In this document: positions 3,272 to 54,835 of the stretch, one piece after another
Layout: the number at the start of each line of letters is the position of its first letter
Position numbering within the stretch: position 1 is the first letter of the stretch
Source of the DNA: Nitrospinales bacterium
GTDB lineage: Bacteria; Nitrospinota; Nitrospinia; Nitrospinales; VA-1
Length of the DNA: 64,000 nt
Direction of reading: 5' to 3'
Assembly (NCBI GenBank): GCA_965262115.1
Contig: OZ253496.1
Span: forward strand, 1,540,447-1,604,446
Position numbers and translations under genes: made by a program
The notes under the pieces: generated by a model
Seen by the model: only the letters and a program-made list of their open reading frames with translations
Database searches by the model: none
Told to the model about the DNA's origin: nothing

Positions 3272-4019
3272 CTGAGGCATAAAGTTTTTTAGGGATGCGT
3301 CCGGCTTCATAAGCCAGTCGGCCGGACTCCACCGCCATTTTCATAGCTAATGCCATCTTGTACGGCTCTTTCGCGCTGGCGATGGCAGTGTTCATCAAGA
3401 TTCCTGAAACGCCGAGTTCCATGGCGCGGCTGGCATCGGAGGCGGTGCCAACCCCGGCATCGATGATGACCGGCACCTTGACCGCTTCTAAAATCAGTTT
3501 GATGTTATACGGGTTGCGAATGCCGAGGCCGGAGCCGATCGGCGCCGCCAGTGGCATGACTGCGGCGCAACCGATGTCTTCGAGTTTTTTGCAGAGCACG
3601 ACATCGTCGGTGCAATAAGGCAGAACATGAAAGCCGTCTTTGACTAATAGTTTAGAAGCCTCCAGCGTGGCTTCGTTGTCGGGGAACAGAGTTTTCTCGT
3701 CACCGATGACTTCTACCTTGACGATGTTTCCCAGTCTCGCTTCCCGCGCCAGTTCGCAAGTCATCACCGCCTCTTTCAGCGTGTAGCATCCGGCGGTGTT
3801 GGGCAGAAAAGTGTATTTTTTTGGGTCGAGATGATTGAGTATGGAGTCTTTATTTTTGTCCAGCTCAATGCGGCGAACGGCGACCGTCACAATTTCGGCG
3901 CCGGAAATTTCGATAGCCTGTCGGGTTTCGTCGAAGGATTTATATTTCCCGGTCCCTACAATCAGCCTGGACTTGAAGGTCTTGTCGCCAATTTTCATGA
4001 ATTCTTGTTTTGTGTTCAT
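3237..4019 (-). CDS. thiG: Thiazole synthase ThiG
   Basis: 260-aa ORF with typical ThiG sequence ([12 protein letters not shown]..., [14 protein letters not shown]). Confidence 0.95.
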
Positions 4020-29851: not shown

Positions 29852-30030
29852 CCCACTAGCCGTGGGGGCAGATAGCCATAACTTTTTCCGGCAAAAAAAG
29901 TTGTCGCGGCTTAATGGGTTGGGGTGATTGACCTCCAGTGGGGTTGCCGTGCCCGAGTGAGAGGATGTTTTATTCTTCTTTAGCTTTCATGATCCTGTGA
30001 TTTCCCCTGACGTTAACTTCATGCCCTGCA
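29852..30030. repeat. Cluster of short hairpin repeat modules
   Basis: CCCACTAGCCGTGGGGGCAGATAGCC (29852-29877), GGGTTGGGGTGATTGACC (29916-29933, also at 48974-48991) and CTTCATGCCCTGCAGGGTA. Confidence 0.8.
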
Positions 30031-30037
30031 GGGTACA

Positions 30038-35151: not shown

Positions 35152-35278
35152 AGACCTTTGCATAACCCCGAGATTCTTCGTCACGTTGTTCCTCAGAATG
35201 ACAAAACAGCCCTTTATTGTCATGCTGAGCTTGTCGAAGCATCTCGCTTTTCTGCTTTATCGACTTACGCAAAGGTCT
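35152..35278. mobile_element. MITE-like element, family A (terminal inverted repeats AGACCTTTGCRTAAG)
   Basis: The left end is AGACCTTTGCATAA and the right end TTACGCAAAGGTCT. It is flanked by the direct repeat CTAAAAGACC (35142-35151 and 35280-35289). The second copy includes the stop codon of the gene at 35280-35660. Confidence 0.75.
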
Positions 35279-35279
35279 C

Positions 35280-35660
35280 CTAAAAGACCAGTTGGTAGCC
35301 TGAAAACAGGCAGATGCCCATTACCAGAAGTCCTGCCAAATAAAATCCTGTCGCGGTTCTCGAAAAGGTATTGGTGTAGGCGTAGCCGGCAGAGAATCCA
35401 TAGAGGATGGTAAACAAAAAAGCATAGCCTTGGTGCCCCTCAACCTCCACAATGGTTCGCAAGTTAATGTCGACAGAGACCATGCCGGAAAAATCGGCGA
35501 CCACAGCGGCTAGAAGGCCCAGGCTCAGATTAAAAGCTCCTGCGGCTTTTAATTTTTCATCATTTTTTTTGTGGGCCAAAAAAAGCAGGGCCAGTCCGGC
35601 AACAAATAAGGCGGGAGAAAAATGGGAAATGAAAGGGTGAAACGATACGGAGCTGATCAT
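35280..35660 (-). CDS. DUF2231-family membrane protein
   Basis: 126-aa ORF with HPFISHFSPALFVAGL and four TM segments. Confidence 0.6.
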   Translation of the reverse strand: MISSVSFHPFISHFSPALFVAGLALLFLAHKKNDEKLKAAGAFNLSLGLLAAVVADFSGMVSVDINLRTIVEVEGHQGYAFLFTILYGFSAGYAYTNTFSRTATGFYLAGLLVMGICLFSGYQLVF

Positions 35661-37539: not shown

Positions 37540-38040
37540 GGGCATCTCAAAAAATTGCTTTTGTACCCCTGTGGGGCATGAAAGCTGATGGGGAATATAA
37601 CAGCCACGAGCGGCCATTATGACAAGGAGACCTTTGCATAAGTCGAAAATCGAGATGCTTCGACATACCCCTCCGGGGCAAGAAGGCAAAGGTCGAGTAT
37701 CACTAGCTCAGCATGACAATACTGGGCCATTTTGTCATGCTGAGGAACAAGGCGACGAAGACGTGACATTTTTCCTTACCCTTCGTGCCCGGCACGGGTA
37801 ATCTCGCTTTGCATAGGCTTGGGGATTTGGGGTTGCCGTCTTTGCGAGGAGGCTTTAGCCGACGCGGCAATCCAGGTTTTGGTTTTTCTCTCGGGGTCAT
37901 GCTGAGCCTGTTGAAGAATCTCGCCTTGCATAGGCCTGGGGATTCTTCACTGCGTTCAGAATGACAAGAAACGCCGGTTTGTCATCCTCAAGGAGCCAAC
38001 GGCGACGAATGATCCGGGGTTACGCAAAGCTCTCTATGAT
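37540..38040. repeat. About 500 bp built only of nested MITE-like and hairpin repeat units
   Basis: Family A terminus GAGACCTTTGCATAAGTCG at 37627, GTCATGCTGAG / CTCAGCATGAC inverted pairs, TACCCC-N3-GGGGCA hairpins, and family B-like termini (GCGAGGAGGC..., ...GGAGCCAACGGCGACGAA). Confidence 0.8.
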
Positions 38041-40315: not shown

Positions 40316-41782
40316 GTCAAGTCTTTTGGGCCTGTTGCCCAAACCTTTTGATAGAAGCGTGGGTTTATAAGGATTATAATTTATCTGGCTAGTTTTTGTT
40401 CTTCTACAGTTTTAATCTTTTTTTCCGGGAGTCATTCCCATGATGAAACGCGAAACCCCGTCCCAGAGCGTATTCTTTAACTAGGCCGTGAATCTTGAAG
40501 ATCGGAGTCCTCCAGATCACGAGTTGCGGCAAGTTTCTTCCGTTTTGAACCTGGATTTTGTGTATGAACAAGTAAAGGATAAGTACGGCCACAATGGCAA
40601 CGAATCGGTTCCGCCTCCGGTGATGCTAAAACTGATGTTGCTGCTCATCTTTTACAACGTTCGTTCCGAACGTGAGTTGATGCGTACGCTTCCGTAGCGG
40701 ATGGATTGGCTCTGGTTTCTGGGTTATGGTCTGGACACTGTGATTCCTAATCCCAGCGTATTATCGAAACCAAGGGTTACGAGAAACTTTGTGAGAGACT
40801 GGGCGAACCGGAGGAATCCAATAATCGGCGGGTACGCAGAGAAGTTAATGTTCGTTACCGTTCTACGACCGCTCCGGATGCGGCGATTGTGCCGCGCGGG
40901 GGTTCGCGTTTGCGTTATAAAGTACATCGTTCGGTGGATCCGGCGGCGGAAGTGATCACCACGACTGAGGTGACACGTGGCGATGTAGACGATTCGCATC
41001 GGTTCAGTGCCATGCTGGAAGCGCACCAGGAAAATACCGGGATGTCAGCGAAGACCGCAGTGGCCGACAGTAAATACGGTACGGTGGAAAACTTTCTTGC
41101 CTGCAAAGATATGGGCATTCAACCCCATATGCCCGACCTGAAAAAGAGTCAGGAAACAGACGGCAAACGTCATGGAATATTTTCCAACAGCGCATTTACA
41201 TTCGACCCTGAAAGCGATACCTATATCTGCCCGGTGGGCAAACGCTTGCGGCTGAAGACCTGCCGGTTAAAAGAGCAGCGTATGTATTACGCCGCCAGAG
41301 CAGACGACGGTAATGCCTGCGAACTAAAATCCCAATGCACACGTAGTGCAACCGGACGCACGATCCAACGGGTTGATCGTCAGGACGACCTCGAAGAAAT
41401 GCGCGCAATGGCAAAGACCCCAAAAGGAAAACAAGACCTGAAAACGAGACAGCATCTTATGGAACGGTCATTCGCATATTCGGTGCCCTTGGGATTCAAA
41501 AGGGCACGGTGGCGAAGATTATGGCTGATCCAGATTCAAGAATACCTGACCGCATCCATTCAAAACATCAAACGAATGATCCAACACCTGAAAAAACCGA
41601 TTCACAGTCATGCACTGAAGGTCGTACAACGATTCAAAAACTGCTTGCAGGCTTCAACTTGGGGAGGAATGAATCTGGGTTTTGGGATTTCAATTTAGAA
41701 AAGAAAATTCGTAAGAAATACACAAAATTAATATCAGCAACCCTTCACGGCAACCCTTTGGGCAACAGGCCCTTTTCTTGAC
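40316..41782 (+). mobile_element. Decayed IS1182/IS5-family insertion sequence; the transposase is a pseudogene
   Basis: Terminal IRs GTCAAGTCTTTTGGGCCTGTTGCCCAAA (40316-40343) and TTTGGGCAACAGGCCCTTTTCTTGAC (41757-41782). The transposase reading frame has in-frame TAG codons at 40482 and 40698 and a frame change with apparent internal deletion after ...SVLSKPR. The DDE C-terminal part is in ORF 40889-41698. Confidence 0.8.
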
Positions 41783-41810
41783 TACAAGAGGGTAAAAGAA
41801 GCGTGGCAAT

Positions 41811-42258
41811 CCAACCCTCCCCCAGCCCCTCCCTATGAAGGGAGGGGAGGCAGATGTTTTAAAATCTTTTCAAAAACTCCATCCAGGTTTTCATAAACAT
41901 CCTGATTGGTAAATCGCAGAAACCGTATCCCCATATCTTCGATGGTTTTCTGCCGGATTTCATCCGATTGGATCGCCGTTCCACTGAAATGAGAGTCTCC
42001 ATCGATTTCAATCGCGAGTTTTGCCGATGGGCAATAAAAATCCAGAATGTATCGGTCGACACTGTATTGTCGCCCAAACTTATATCCACCGGCCTGTCTG
42101 TTTCGCAAAAACTGCCACAAAGCCACTTCCGCTAGCGGCATTTCTTTGCGCAAGGATTCTCTTTTGGTTTTTTCTGTGTTTCTGTTGAAAATTTTTACCA
42201 TAGCTTTCTACATTCCAAGCCCCCCTCCCTTCATAGGGAGGGGCTGGGGGAGGGTTGG
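41811..42258. mobile_element. 448-bp cassette: DUF559 gene bracketed by perfect 37-bp inverted repeats
   Basis: CCAACCCTCCCCCAGCCCCTCCCTATGAAGGGAGGGG (41811-41847) and its exact reverse complement (42222-42258). Confidence 0.75.
41833..42201 (-). CDS. DUF559 (Vsr-like endonuclease fold) protein, copy 1
   Basis: 122-aa ORF (LWQFLRNRQ...YILDFYCPSAKLAIEIDGDSH...RFLRFTNQDV). The stop codon and last codons (LPPLPS) lie inside the left IR. Confidence 0.8.
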   Translation of the reverse strand: MVKIFNRNTEKTKRESLRKEMPLAEVALWQFLRNRQAGGYKFGRQYSVDRYILDFYCPSAKLAIEIDGDSHFSGTAIQSDEIRQKTIEDMGIRFLRFTNQDVYENLDGVFEKILKHLPPLPS

Positions 42259-42363
42259 ATCAAAGTTAGCATCCGAACCTGAAAACAGGTTAACAAATAG
42301 TTGAAGATGGTGTAAATAATTTTTGTGTCTGCTTTGAGGCTGGAGGCGGCTCAAGTACTTTTT

Positions 42364-42650
42364 TTATAGTCCCTCCCTATGAAGGGAGGGATAGATATCG
42401 GCAGAGAGGGTTTGAGTCATTTTTTGATGCTCGGCAAACTCCAGGCCGTTGTCATAAGTGATGGTGTGAACCCGGTTCCGGTGAGGGGCAAGCCCCTGTT
42501 CGATGCGTTGGCGGACCTGTGGGACCTGTTTGGTTTTCGATGCGGTCAGAACCGTATATTGAGTTTTGCGCTCCACAAGAGTGGCAACAACGCCGACCTT
42601 TACCGATGAGGGTATCGCCTTCCCAGTCTCCGACACGAAATGGCATTTTG
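42364..42650 (-). pseudogene. IS30-family transposase fragment
   Basis: Two overlapping frames carry ...GDWEGDTLIGKG... and ...TLVERKTQYTVL...TITYDNGLEFAEH..., which are integrase-core motifs of IS30 transposases. It is truncated at both ends. The 3' end abuts a CCCTCCC-N6-GGGAGGG hairpin. Confidence 0.7.
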
Positions 42651-45158: not shown

Positions 45159-45192
45159 TCTCTGTCTTAACTCCCTGAATCCCCTTGTCAGG

Positions 45193-45442
45193 CAGACCTT
45201 TGCGTAAGTCTATAAAGCAGAAAAGCGAGATGCTTCGAGATACCCCTACGGGGCATGAAGTTTAATGAAGAGGATATCACATACCCCTCCTACCCCTCCG
45301 GGGCATGAAGTTAATGGAAGGGGATATAACAGGCTCAAGAAGGCAAAGGTCGAGTATCACTAGCTCAGCATGACAATAAAAGGCTATTTTGTCATTCTGA
45401 GGAGCTATTGCAACGAAGAATCTTGGGTTATGCAAAGGTCTC
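45193..45442. mobile_element. MITE-like element, family A, with about 125 bp of hairpin modules nested inside
   Basis: Ends are CAGACCTTTGCGTAAGTC and TTATGCAAAGGTCTC. The internal arms match the reverse complement of 35152-35278. The middle carries two TACCCC-N3-GGGGCATGAAG...GGATATCAC units. Confidence 0.7.
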
Positions 45443-45491
45443 CTTCTTAGGGGGAAGTTCTTTTAAGTATTACCCTTCCGGGGCACGAAGG

Positions 45492-46181
45492 CTAATGAAG
45501 AGTATCACGTGCGCTTGAGCGTTTGGTCCGCTTTATAGGCAATGCAGTGCTGGCAGCATGTGATACCCCTTCACTTGTTTCATGCCCCGTAGGGGTACGC
45601 CGAGCGGTTAACTTTTTATCCATTTTGCGAATGAGTTCATCAAAACTCTTTTTTTTAATCACCTTGTAAAACTGACTGCGCAAATTGTTCCGCATGCTGA
45701 TCCCGTCCAGAATGACATCCACCACCTGCCATTTACCTCCGGCCAGAGTCAGATGAAAATCGATGTCGACTTCCCCTTCCTTTTCATGAATCACCGTCAG
45801 GGGAACCACAACAACTTTCTTTTTTTCTTTGGTTTTTCCATATTCCAGATCCAGTTCGGCAAAAAATTTCGCAGAACTGGGAAATGCCACATGGACGAAC
45901 AGGTCCCCGAGCAGGGTTTTAAACTTTTCTCGCTCGGGATCACTGCGCTTAGCCCAATGTTTTCCTAAAGCTTTTTTGCTGATTTCTGCGACATTCAGCA
46001 AACCAAGAGCAGATTGGGAATGCTTCTGGTTGTCTGCCTCTTCTAAACCCGAAACATCCGCTTTAATCTGTTGAATTTCTCCCAACAACTTTTTCACCGA
46101 ATCCTGGGGGTCTTTGGTTTCTGCCCAGAGCGGACTGGTGGTCAAAACAATAAAAAGAACAGCACTTAAGGTTTTTTTCAT
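45492..46181 (-). CDS. MlaC/Ttg2D-like periplasmic lipid-binding protein with a repeat-encoded C-terminal tail
   Basis: 229-aa ORF with a signal peptide and an MlaC-like core (ALGKHWAKRSDPEREKFKTLLGDLFVHV...). The last ~38 codons (45492-45608) are translated hairpin-repeat sequence. Confidence 0.6.
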   Translation of the reverse strand: MKKTLSAVLFIVLTTSPLWAETKDPQDSVKKLLGEIQQIKADVSGLEEADNQKHSQSALGLLNVAEISKKALGKHWAKRSDPEREKFKTLLGDLFVHVAFPSSAKFFAELDLEYGKTKEKKKVVVVPLTVIHEKEGEVDIDFHLTLAGGKWQVVDVILDGISMRNNLRSQFYKVIKKKSFDELIRKMDKKLTARRTPTGHETSEGVSHAASTALPIKRTKRSSARDTLH

Positions 46182-48774: not shown

Positions 48775-49490
48775 GGGGCCGACTGCAATAGCTTTCCCTG
48801 GCAAGCAATAGGTTAGCCCGGCCTGATGAGCCGCCGAGGGCAAAAACTTCTCCCCTGACAGGTGGACGTGATATTTTTCCTAAATTTTCGTACCCCGAAG
48901 GGATATTGAGGGGGGTTGATTTTTTAACTCCCTCTTTCTCAAACTCGAACAATAGGAAGACGTTTTGTTCGACGGGTTGGGGTGATTGACCACAAGAAGG
49001 GGGTTTGTCGTCATTGCGAACGAAGTGAAGCAATCCAGTTGCTAGTACCCCAAAACCGTATGAAACACAGCACCAATTCCGACACACCAGTAAATGTCGG
49101 CACCAATAAGGTTCCAAACTGCGGCTGATTTCTCTAAAGGTCATTGCATCACCGCCTTAACCACAAAGAAAAAGAACGCGAGCATGGTGAGGACGGTGTT
49201 CGCCACCGCCGACCAGATCATGATTGTGTGCGCAATATTCCCATCACTAACTTCATGCCCCGTAGGGGGGGTATAATAGTTTTTCCATATCACTTGCCAT
49301 TCTGAGTTTGTAGGTCTGTCATGCTGAGCTAGTGATATTTGATCTTTGAATTCTTGCCCCGGAGGGGTATGTCGAAGCATCTCGATTCTTCGATTTTTCG
49401 ACTTATGCAAAGGGCTCCCTGTCAAGGGAGGGGTGAATGATCTCTTTACAACCTTGGTAACACTGAACTATTTCACAAGGCTCAAGGCCA
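48775..49490. repeat. About 700 bp tract of hairpin and MITE-like repeats, possibly with a gene remnant
   Basis: GGGTTGGGGTGATTGACC (48974-48991), GTCGTCATTGCGAACGAAG...CAATCC, CTTCATGCCCCGTAGGGGGGGTA, GTCATGCTGAGC, and the family A terminus ACTTATGCAAAGGGCTC (about 49401-49417). Confidence 0.75.
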
Positions 49491-49491
49491 G

Positions 49492-49939
49492 CCAACCCTC
49501 CCCCAGCCCCTCCCTATGAAGGGAGGGGAGGCAGATGTTTTAAAATCCTTTCGTAAACTCCATTCAGGTTTTCATAAACATCCTGGTTGGTAAAACGCAG
49601 AAACCGTATTCCCATATTTTCGATAACCTTCTGTCGGACCTGGTCCGATTGTGCAGCCTCTTCGCTAAAATGAGAATCCCCATCGATTTCAATCGCGAGT
49701 TTTGCCGATGGGCAATAAAAATCCAGAATGTATCGATCAACACTGTGTTGCCGCCGAAACTTGTGTCCATTTGCCTGCCTGTTTCGCAAAAACTGCCACA
49801 AAGCCACTTCCGCTGGGGGCATTTCTTTGCGCAAGGACTTTCTCCTGGTTTTTTCTGTATTTTTATTAAAAATTTTTACCATTGTTTTTTTGTTTTTCAT
49901 ATCCCCTCCCTTCATATGGAGGGGTTTGGGGAGGGCTGG
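49492..49939. mobile_element. Second DUF559 cassette with degenerate right inverted repeat
   Basis: The left IR (49492-49528) is identical to copy 1. The right IR (49903-49939) differs at 4 of 37 positions. The length is the same, 448 bp. Confidence 0.7.
49514..49882 (-). CDS. DUF559 (Vsr-like endonuclease fold) protein, copy 2
   Basis: 122 aa from the ATG at 49882. It differs from copy 1 at 18 of 122 residues by manual alignment. The tracked 253-aa ORF is an upstream read-through extension. Confidence 0.75.
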   Translation of the reverse strand: MVKIFNKNTEKTRRKSLRKEMPPAEVALWQFLRNRQANGHKFRRQHSVDRYILDFYCPSAKLAIEIDGDSHFSEEAAQSDQVRQKVIENMGIRFLRFTNQDVYENLNGVYERILKHLPPLPS

Positions 49940-50062
49940 ATTAAAGCAATGCATTATCCTGAACTTCCCCTGGTTGAGTGGACACATTGAAAGTGTGGAT
50001 AATACATTTTTGGAGGTGTGTCTATGGTGAGCAAGCGAAGGAGTTTTAGTAAGGAGGTGGGA

Positions 50063-54619: not shown

Positions 54620-54835
54620 ATCGTTTTAGCGGAGAGCCTCCGCTGGCAACCGGCAAGGGCATGAAGGCTAATGATGGGGATATCACAAGCCAAGATAATT
54701 TTTTCTAGCCAGACGTGATATTTTTCTTAAGTCTTCGTGCCCCTGTGATATCCCCTCCGCTAAATTCATGCCCGGAACGGGTAGAAGGGGTAAATAGTTA
54801 TTACCAGTTGCCTCCACGGCTAGTGGTGGGATTTA
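54620..54835. repeat. Cluster of short hairpin repeat modules
   Basis: GCGGAGAGCCTCCGC, GGCATGAAGGCTAATGATGGGGATATCAC, its inverted partner GTGATATTTTTCTTAAGTCTTCGTGCCCC, and GTTGCCTCCACGGCTAGTGG (54807-54826). Confidence 0.8.

Follow-up and report, generated by a model that had tools for sequence, protein, structure and literature searches.

BoxC, PIT and TM repeats are intrastrand-triplex motifs that have been described since the 1990s and catalogued since 1992. Triplex repeats occur in tens to hundreds of copies per genome and are correlated with genome instability, and those who have studied them have found neither a function nor an enzyme for them. The published Escherichia coli motif consists of a 9-nt C stem, a loop of 3-6 nt, a 9-nt G stem, a 3-nt loop and another 9-nt G stem (Holder et al. 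2015, PMC4666352). It is present in 23 copies in MG1655, every copy being intergenic, and forms inverted pairs of two subtypes; its single strand adopts a triplex in vitro, as detected by circular dichroism and nuclear magnetic resonance (PMC4666352). Earlier experiments gave no promoter or terminator activity, the loci that bear the motif show higher variability, and no transposase, integrase or other mobility function is found near it, the flanking genes having no common theme (PMC4666352). The subject of the present analysis is a gene cassette in a 64,000-nt stretch of contig OZ253496.1 (GCA_965262115.1; hereafter the window, whose positions serve as coordinates), in which a DUF559 nuclease gene is bracketed by inverted copies of a repeat of predicted triplex type (cassette A). 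DUF559 is, to our knowledge, a large family of small nucleases to which no role has been assigned. The Caulobacter DUF559-domain protein VsrA (CCNA_02930) causes DNA damage in vivo and has a functional tie to a cytosine methyltransferase; in Legionella, repeated segments of DUF559 are hotspots of recombination, and the domain has been grouped in the literature with the EDxHD family (I-Bth0305I). Our analysis shows a physical coupling of the DUF559 gene to the repeats that extends across phyla, with the repeats lying at set distances from its start and stop codons.

The two arms of cassette A (41809-41847 and 42222-42260) are 39 nt long, 100% complementary and separated by 374 nt. An earlier annotation made without database searches (the sequence-only reading) had reported a perfect 37-bp inverted repeat at 41811-41847 and 42222-42258, which is real and 2 nt longer than described. 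It was also right about the single 122-aa DUF559 gene, since the sole credible open reading frame (ORF) between the arms is that at 41833-42201 on the minus strand, which matches Pfam PF04480 with 102.8 bits (gathering cutoff 20.6; E=1.2e-29), and about each arm having its own hairpin, found here to be of 9 bp (CCCCTCCCT-N4-AGGGAGGGG; about -10 to -11 kcal/mol as single-stranded DNA). Each hairpin is adjoined by a mirror-repeat tail, and the blocks of both arms measure 9 / 4 / 9 / 3 / 9 nt. On the minus strand, the module at the gene's 3′ end comprises the hairpin CCCCTCCCT-tcat-AGGGAGGGG, the linker ctg and the mirror tail GGGGAGGGT, followed by TGGAT. Its overlap with the gene takes in the stop codon and four final codons (PLPS), rather than the last six (HLPPLPS) as had been claimed; on the other side, 20 nt separate the hairpin of the upstream module from the start codon. 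For the arm or hairpin patterns, dinucleotide-preserving shuffles of the window gave 0.00-0.01 expected chance matches. The sequence-only reading had overlooked a diverged second whole unit at 49490-49941 (cassette B), the two units being about 85-86% identical. Its inverted repeat is 38 nt long (89%), and its protein is 85% identical to copy A. Homology between copies A and B starts and stops at the outer arm ends, and only four complete modules exist in the window, all of them flanking the two DUF559 genes.

The general design of the module is a C-rich arm of 9-10 nt, a loop usually of 3 nt, a G-rich arm, a linker usually of 3 nt and a tail that mirrors the G-rich arm. Such a mirror tail was present on 73% of 209 hairpins in DUF559 loci (the majority no more than 250 bp away from the gene) versus 6% of random controls. 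A tail formed as a direct repeat of the purine arm was also considered and ruled out, because the mirror gave 7/7 matches in 75 cases versus 29. Across 138 distinct modules next to DUF559 genes, arm G faces tail G at 823 of 832 positions and arm A faces tail A or T at 382 of 415. These pairings follow the purine-motif triad rule (G.GC, A.AT, T.AT), from which the window modules deviate only by A to T at the stem end, and they would be the triads of an antiparallel purine-motif triplex. Both arms of cassette A possess the three-block BoxC/PIT architecture of pyrimidine stem, loop, purine stem, short loop and mirror purine stem. The Nitrospina module (CCCCTCCCT / AGGGAGGGG / GGGGAGGGT) resembles the BoxC/PIT/TM repeats in block architecture, multi-copy and intergenic occurrence, presence as solos and inverted pairs, and location in variable loci. 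It differs in stem sequence, as it does not fit the E. coli TMECO pattern CCCTCNCCC-N3-6-GGGNGAGGG-N3-GGGNGAGGG, and in that it brackets a nuclease gene, whereas the published repeats have no associated gene or enzyme. Judged by its sequence, it is a new family in a known structural class. Searching Rfam at a permissive threshold returned two chance-level matches only; no terminator-like sites were found, and promoter-like sites were at the level of shuffles.

The coupling with DUF559 was assessed in 82 loci, comprising 80 metagenomic loci retrieved at 44-87% identity with a profile of 25 homologues, an Anabaena locus and a 1.3-Mb contig. The density of C/G hairpins is 4.79 per kb up to 250 bp from DUF559 versus 0.09 per kb in the remainder of the same loci, an enrichment of ~50-fold. 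Among the 74 loci with adequate flanks, hairpins were found on both sides of the gene in 50, upstream only in 14, downstream only in three and nowhere in seven. The Anabaena homologue (51% identity) lies between inverted repeats of 52 nt (94%) that have the same design and their own stem sequence, and its 3′ module overlaps the end of the ORF, as in cassette A; the 1.3-Mb contig has the same arrangement as Anabaena. Homologues of cultured organisms with 36-48% identity gave a similar picture: a true inverted module pair is located at DUF559 on pSymB of S. meliloti, and modules adjoin the gene in Photobacterium, Azospirillum, Deinococcus and Picosynechococcus PCC 7002. A set of 76 viral-contig loci with distant matches to the DUF559 catalytic core only served as a negative control and carried none of these hairpins, and the four viral loci with full-length DUF559 similarity (40-41% identity) had them on both sides. 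Carriage by phages was considered and rejected, as these four were the sole full-length relatives on viral contigs. The association between DUF559 and the repeats is solid. The sequence-only reading had stated that its idea would fall if the inverted repeat were a generic intergenic hairpin unlinked to DUF559 genes; the repeat is indeed a widespread intergenic hairpin, but it is not unlinked, the linkage across phyla being strong. Our literature search, which did not cover all journals, found no paper linking DUF559 or YcjD to triplex repeats.

Within Nitrospinaceae the module is dispersed far more widely than the gene. An exact search for the 20-nt hairpin, with one genome per species, returned at least 96 stretches, nearly all from Nitrospina or other Nitrospinaceae assemblies and many per genome, which agrees with the multi-copy intergenic dispersal of the BoxC/PIT class. 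Nearly every listed match has the full module of ~37 nt, A[T/G]CCAACCCTCCC-N3-4-CCCTCCC-TATGAA-GGGAGGG, with variation mostly in the short linker. Among the matches listed, 108 of 113 modules are intergenic and ~20 of 112 exact hairpin matches flank DUF559 genes; since only 12 DUF559 genes are found in these stretches, most modules are solo. The arm is a dispersed repeat like the repetitive extragenic palindrome (REP) and not a private transposon end, and the proposal that the arms are the ends of a private transposable unit has to be abandoned in favor of the known BoxC/PIT/TM class. When paired, the modules delimit a defined unit: tails-out pairs 366-401 bp apart contained DUF559 in 9/9 cases (Nitrospinaceae stretches, among the matches listed), and 11 aligned Nitrospinaceae cassettes occur in at least six genomic contexts, with similarity stopping at the module borders. 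By these borders the unit is a discrete cassette. Gene-less inverted doublets are also present, with spacers of 51-54 nt in Nitrospinaceae and of 26-54 nt in E. coli and Nitrospinaceae together.

The DUF559 protein is predicted to be an intact nuclease. The closest solved relative of copy A is the N. gonorrhoeae DUF559 protein (PDB 3HRL, E=2.8e-15). An AlphaFold2 model of copy A (mean predicted local distance difference test, pLDDT, 87) had 3HRL as its best Foldseek match, followed by the catalytic domain of I-Bth0305I (3R3P; E=4.5e-4, TM-score 0.61-0.75) and, more weakly, by 1VSR/1CW0 and related nuclease domains. The residues D54, E65, D67 and H71 are invariant in the 25 homologues and form the motif D...E-x-D-G-x-x-H; the structure prediction of catalytic residues that the sequence-only reading had suggested is in agreement with its Vsr-like fold. 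The ratio of nonsynonymous to synonymous divergence (dN/dS) was 0.03-0.35 among Nitrospinaceae copies, 0.08-0.35 for copy A and 0.18 between copies A and B (dS 0.46), and dS exceeded 1 (saturated) between several lineages with nearly identical modules. The low dN/dS, together with the likeness of modules despite saturated synonymous sites, means that the gene and the modules are both maintained. The protein retains an intact predicted Vsr-type catalytic core and is under purifying selection.

Taken together, the association points to a partnership like that of REP and its associated tyrosine transposase (RAYT), in which DUF559 would be the cognate nuclease acting on the triplex repeats. We put the probability of this reading at roughly 50%, the association being observed and the mechanism inferred. 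DUF559 would bind the motif either in duplex form or in transient single-stranded DNA whose purine strand has folded into hairpin plus triplex, and could nick or cut there. Repair of the break from other copies would homogenize and disperse the repeats, could carry along a gene lying between two of them, and might cause the local rearrangements reported around such motifs. The upstream module may keep expression of the nuclease low, as its purine arm looks like a ribosome-binding site sequestered in a hairpin. Going further, and only tentatively, stand-alone DUF559 proteins might be the long-missing BoxC/PIT enzymes, namely structure- or sequence-specific nucleases that recognize the hairpin-plus-mirror-tail fold and whose nicking drives the copying, homogenization and spread of the repeats, along with the spread of their own gene and possibly of other bracketed single-gene cassettes.

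E. coli provides a natural comparison. In K-12, a decayed module covers the stop codon at the end of ycjD, and the classic BoxC between ycjD and fabI, 167 nt from ycjD, is TMECO number 9 of the published table. Before this intact BoxC, a partial duplicate of ~70 nt of the ycjD 3′ end with a decayed module was observed (MG1655 1351204-1351420; L185), which has the look of a scar left either by a second cassette or by slipped repair. The gene was found in 3,378 of 5,426 complete E. coli genomes. According to a recent paper, phylogroups A, B1 and C as well as sequence types ST69 and ST182 carry it between sapF and fabI, and an efflux operon takes its place elsewhere. Published repeat counts are 19-30 for K-12, B, HS, 55989, IAI1, W and E24377A, 6-15 for 042, UMN026, IAI39, SMS-3-5 and O157:H7, and 0-2 for strains such as CFT073, UTI89 and IHE3034. 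The first of these sets presumably belongs to the ycjD-carrying phylogroups, and we take CFT073, UTI89 and IHE3034 to be B2 strains without ycjD. This trend fits the partnership hypothesis but is confounded by phylogeny.

Several further points weigh, like that confounding, against a partnership between DUF559 and the repeats. Groups D, E and F of E. coli, as we understand their assignment, keep 6-15 repeats without ycjD, so the repeats can persist in its absence. Most repeat copies lie far from any DUF559 gene, ~10% of the loci (7/74) have no hairpin at all, and module pairs in Nitrospinaceae also bracket unrelated accessory genes. The tails point outward from the gene in Nitrospinaceae and inward in most other phyla, and a single rigid mechanism would have to accommodate both orientations. 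A stable triplex of the E. coli motif was undetected in vivo (PMC4666352). The whole case rests on co-location of gene and repeats. As for mobility, copy A occupies an orthologous site in at least four relatives (L077, which is Nitrospina sp. LS_NOB, L094, L099 and L006), no clean empty site for it was found among the orthologous loci examined, and no target-site duplication was present in the 11 aligned units, no direct repeats abutting the arms. Because of these three observations, ongoing mobility is not demonstrated. The evidence for recent mobility is weak, given the orthologous site of copy A, the lack of target-site duplications, and the age of the copies (dS 0.46 between A and B), which are under purifying selection.

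The orthologous site in L073 has no DUF559 gene. The two outer tails are left there with a different short hairpin between them, and next come a DUF4062-like gene and a solo module; it is a rearranged site, not a clean empty one. No transposase of a known family is encoded in the unit, which matched DUF559-type families only. The copy counts, empty sites and target duplications that had been suggested as a check gave a divided answer, with 11 copies in at least six contexts on the one hand, and neither a clean empty site nor duplications on the other. Similarly, the architecture of a transposable or homing unit claimed by the sequence-only reading is retained in the sharp borders of a discrete cassette and its several contexts, but not in the arms, which are not element-specific terminal repeats and occur mostly as solo copies. 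Its remark that the mobility mechanism is undescribed stands, as known mobility mechanisms do not explain the cassette. A REP/RAYT-like partnership fits better than a simple transposon.

Alternatively, the cassette could be a selfish, homing-type element: DUF559 would be a free-standing homing endonuclease with empty repeat sites, either solo palindromes or doublets, as its cleavage targets, its gene would be copied in by break repair with the flanking modules as homology arms, and the dispersed repeats would be targets rather than products. The second-best structural match to I-Bth0305I and the EDxHD grouping are in line with this, as are the sharp borders in several genomic contexts, the gene-less inverted doublets with 26-54-nt spacers in E. 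coli and Nitrospinaceae, which resemble empty versions, the two outer tails left around another hairpin in L073, and the Legionella hotspots. We nevertheless regard homing as unlikely, because no clean pair of filled and empty sites was found, the protein of just 122 aa has no separate DNA-binding domain, and the copies are old and under purifying selection, whereas the usual homing cycle would have them decay; recombinational repair would find arms of 37-39 nt barely long enough, and the large excess of solo repeats over cassettes would be left unexplained. An invertible switch, in which the inverted repeats mediate programmed inversion and so turn the DUF559 gene with respect to promoters outside it, seems highly improbable. 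The perfect 39-nt inverted repeat around the gene would suit such a switch, and a published survey reported DUF559 and 'endonuclease domain-containing protein' to be 10- to 14-fold enriched among predicted programmed-inversion targets, but this enrichment is expected simply because DUF559 genes commonly carry flanking inverted repeats. Moreover, only insertion sequence (IS) pseudogenes and no site-specific recombinase are present near cassette A, and in 5/5 orthologous loci examined the gene is oriented alike with respect to its flanks.

It is also conceivable that no enzymatic link exists. The repeats would then be fragile, recombination-prone sites at the borders of small accessory genes, or cis-acting silencers or insulators of a toxic nuclease gene (through a sequestered ribosome-binding site and an mRNA panhandle), and DUF559 would act elsewhere, e.g., in very-short-patch mismatch repair or restriction-like defence. 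Such a role is suggested by the tie of Caulobacter VsrA to a cytosine methyltransferase and by weak PADLOC matches to methyl-directed restriction enzymes, but no methyltransferase gene was noted among the ORFs within ~3 kb of cassette A, on which no domain search was run. A fragile-site role of the repeats is favored by the HEPN/TPR, trypsin-like peptidase, LpxR and DUF4062-like genes that repeat pairs also bracket in Nitrospinaceae, by the tie of the repeats to local genome variability in E. coli, and by the window locus itself, a rearrangement hotspot with IS debris. The purine arm, which lies 8-20 nt ahead of the start codon and is similar to a Shine-Dalgarno sequence, is consistent with a cis-acting role, but the repeats had no promoter or terminator activity in earlier experiments and none was predicted here. 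The ~50-fold enrichment at DUF559 over the neighboring genes of the same loci, the fixed position with a module overlapping the stop codon, and the pairing kept across phyla despite changed module sequences all make the absence of a link improbable in our judgment.

The features of the window are collected in the table below. The sequence-only reading had correctly called an IS1182 remnant to the left of cassette A (transposase ORFs over 40488-41698) and an IS30 fragment to the right (42364-42636). The IS1182 insertion is private to the window genome and missing in the orthologous loci L077 and L006, with both of which homology resumes at 41772. That the conserved left flank could be an IS end was ruled out, as it is native sequence common to L077, L006 and L094 and the insertion starts beyond it. 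The solitary hairpin said to cap the IS30 fragment at about 42364-42385 is there, without a tail, but its position is 42370-42391; hairpin and fragment are also present in the orthologous locus of LS_NOB. A remnant of ~60 nt of the 3′ end of an upstream gene was observed at 42270-42340.

Table. Repeat modules, DUF559 genes and insertion-sequence remnants of the window (TM, triplex-type module)
Feature	Position	Strand	Remarks
IS1182-family transposase pseudogene, two ORFs	40488..41771	+	beside cassette A; transposase ORFs over 40488-41698
TM, 3′ end of DUF559 copy A	41809..41847	-	tail 41814-41822, linker 41823-41825, hairpin 41826-41847 (plus-strand coordinates)
DUF559 (Vsr-like PD-(D/E)xK) nuclease gene, copy A, 122 aa	41833..42201	-	PF04480 match
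TM upstream of copy A	42222..42260	+	exact reverse complement of 41809-41847; hairpin 42222-42243, linker 42244-46, tail 42247-42255
IS30-family transposase fragment	42364..42636	-	context of cassette A
Solitary hairpin TCCCTCCCT-atga-AGGGAGGGA, no mirror tail	42370..42391	.	truncated end of IS30 fragment
TM, 3′ end of DUF559 copy B	49490..49528	-	from CCAACC on, identical to the module of copy A
DUF559 gene copy B, 122 aa from homologous ATG at 49882	49514..49882	-	mechanical ORF extends upstream to 50275
TM upstream of copy B, decayed	49903..49941	+	mismatches: one in hairpin, two in tail

Cassette B lies in a different setting. Synteny with Nitrospina sp. LS_NOB breaks right after recN (window 48760 onward vs L077 6538-8000); LS_NOB has an HNH-like gene there, and its place in the window is taken by repeats, DUF559 copy B and large ORFs that resemble surface proteins. 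The region after recN is a variable island. The window also contains a second, mosaic family of intergenic repeats (35152-35281, 37620-37761, 45182-45510 and 49317-49428, with pieces at 29980-30033 and 54657-54792), whose motifs include TGTCATGCTGAGC..., CCCCGGAGGGGTATGTCGAAGCATCTCG and TTTTCGACTTATGCAAAGGTCTCC. In other Nitrospina genomes, many solo triplex modules have a conserved right flank made up of the same motifs, which indicates that the modules often sit in clusters like bacterial interspersed mosaic elements.

Other arrangements of the module were observed outside the window. Single accessory genes lie between triplex modules, with the tails mostly inward, at L009 1403-3312, L012 209-1369, L064 1297-3228, L094 2442-3477 and L073 1100-2060; their products are a HEPN_LA2681+TPR protein, a trypsin-like peptidase, LpxR, a 257-aa protein of no assigned family and a DUF4062-like protein. 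The modules may delimit single-gene islets that can be exchanged. A small hairpin, CTCAAGCCC-loop-GGGCTTGAG, lies within triplex modules of L073 (1041-1103) and L094 (upstream module, ~3880-3960). It is situated between tail and hairpin in L094, and between the two retained tails in L073, at the site of the relatives' DUF559 cassette. Possibly it is another mini-repeat, one with modules as its insertion sites. An uncultured Prevotella contig (L071 7403-7767) has a near-identical tails-out module pair 298 bp apart, which encloses other short hairpin repeats and no DUF559, and the 20-nt hairpin occurs singly in Nitrospirae, Planctomycetaceae, Calothrix and proteobacterial contigs. No DUF559 gene was present in the surrounding stretches of at most 8 kb of the Prevotella contig or these others (L071, L015, L031, L066 and L060).

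If the partnership is real, triplex repeats and DUF559, two widespread bacterial orphans, would explain each other. They would represent a new class of mobile or genome-plasticity system, composed of a Vsr-like nuclease and triplex-forming DNA and ranging from Nitrospinota to E. coli. It would show how triplex repeats spread and why the genomes that carry them destabilize, and could yield a nuclease that reads non-B DNA structure. The conserved coupling makes this a direct hypothesis that is cheap to test, as E. coli has ycjD, 23 chromosomal repeats and natural lineages with and without ycjD.

Compared with known relatives of the protein, E. coli YcjD and N. gonorrhoeae NGO0050 (3HRL) are small stand-alone DUF559 proteins of the same family as the window protein, with ~30-39% identity to it, and the match of the window protein to NCBIfam PRK09767 was below the cutoff. 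I-Bth0305I has a similar Vsr-like catalytic fold and is a selfish nuclease promoting the copying of its own gene; it is located in a phage group I intron and possesses an additional DNA-binding region, whereas the window protein is free-standing, 122 aa long and encoded between genes. Caulobacter VsrA and E. coli Vsr have the Vsr-type nuclease fold in common with the window protein, but they are tied to cytosine methylation and T:G mismatches, and no link to repeats is reported for them. The closest parallel in organization is the REP/RAYT system with its REPINs, where dispersed extragenic palindromes likewise coexist with one or a few enzyme genes flanked by inverted repeat copies, and where gene-less doublets are found as well. 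The enzyme there is an IS200/IS605-like HUH Y1 tyrosine transposase, in place of which the present cassettes encode a Vsr-like PD-(D/E)xK nuclease, and the repeat here, unlike REP, has a mirror tail that is predicted to be able to form a triplex. With an enzyme gene flanked by inverted, dispersed palindromic repeats but no HUH Y1 transposase, the DUF559 system is an analogue of REP-RAYT and not a member of it.

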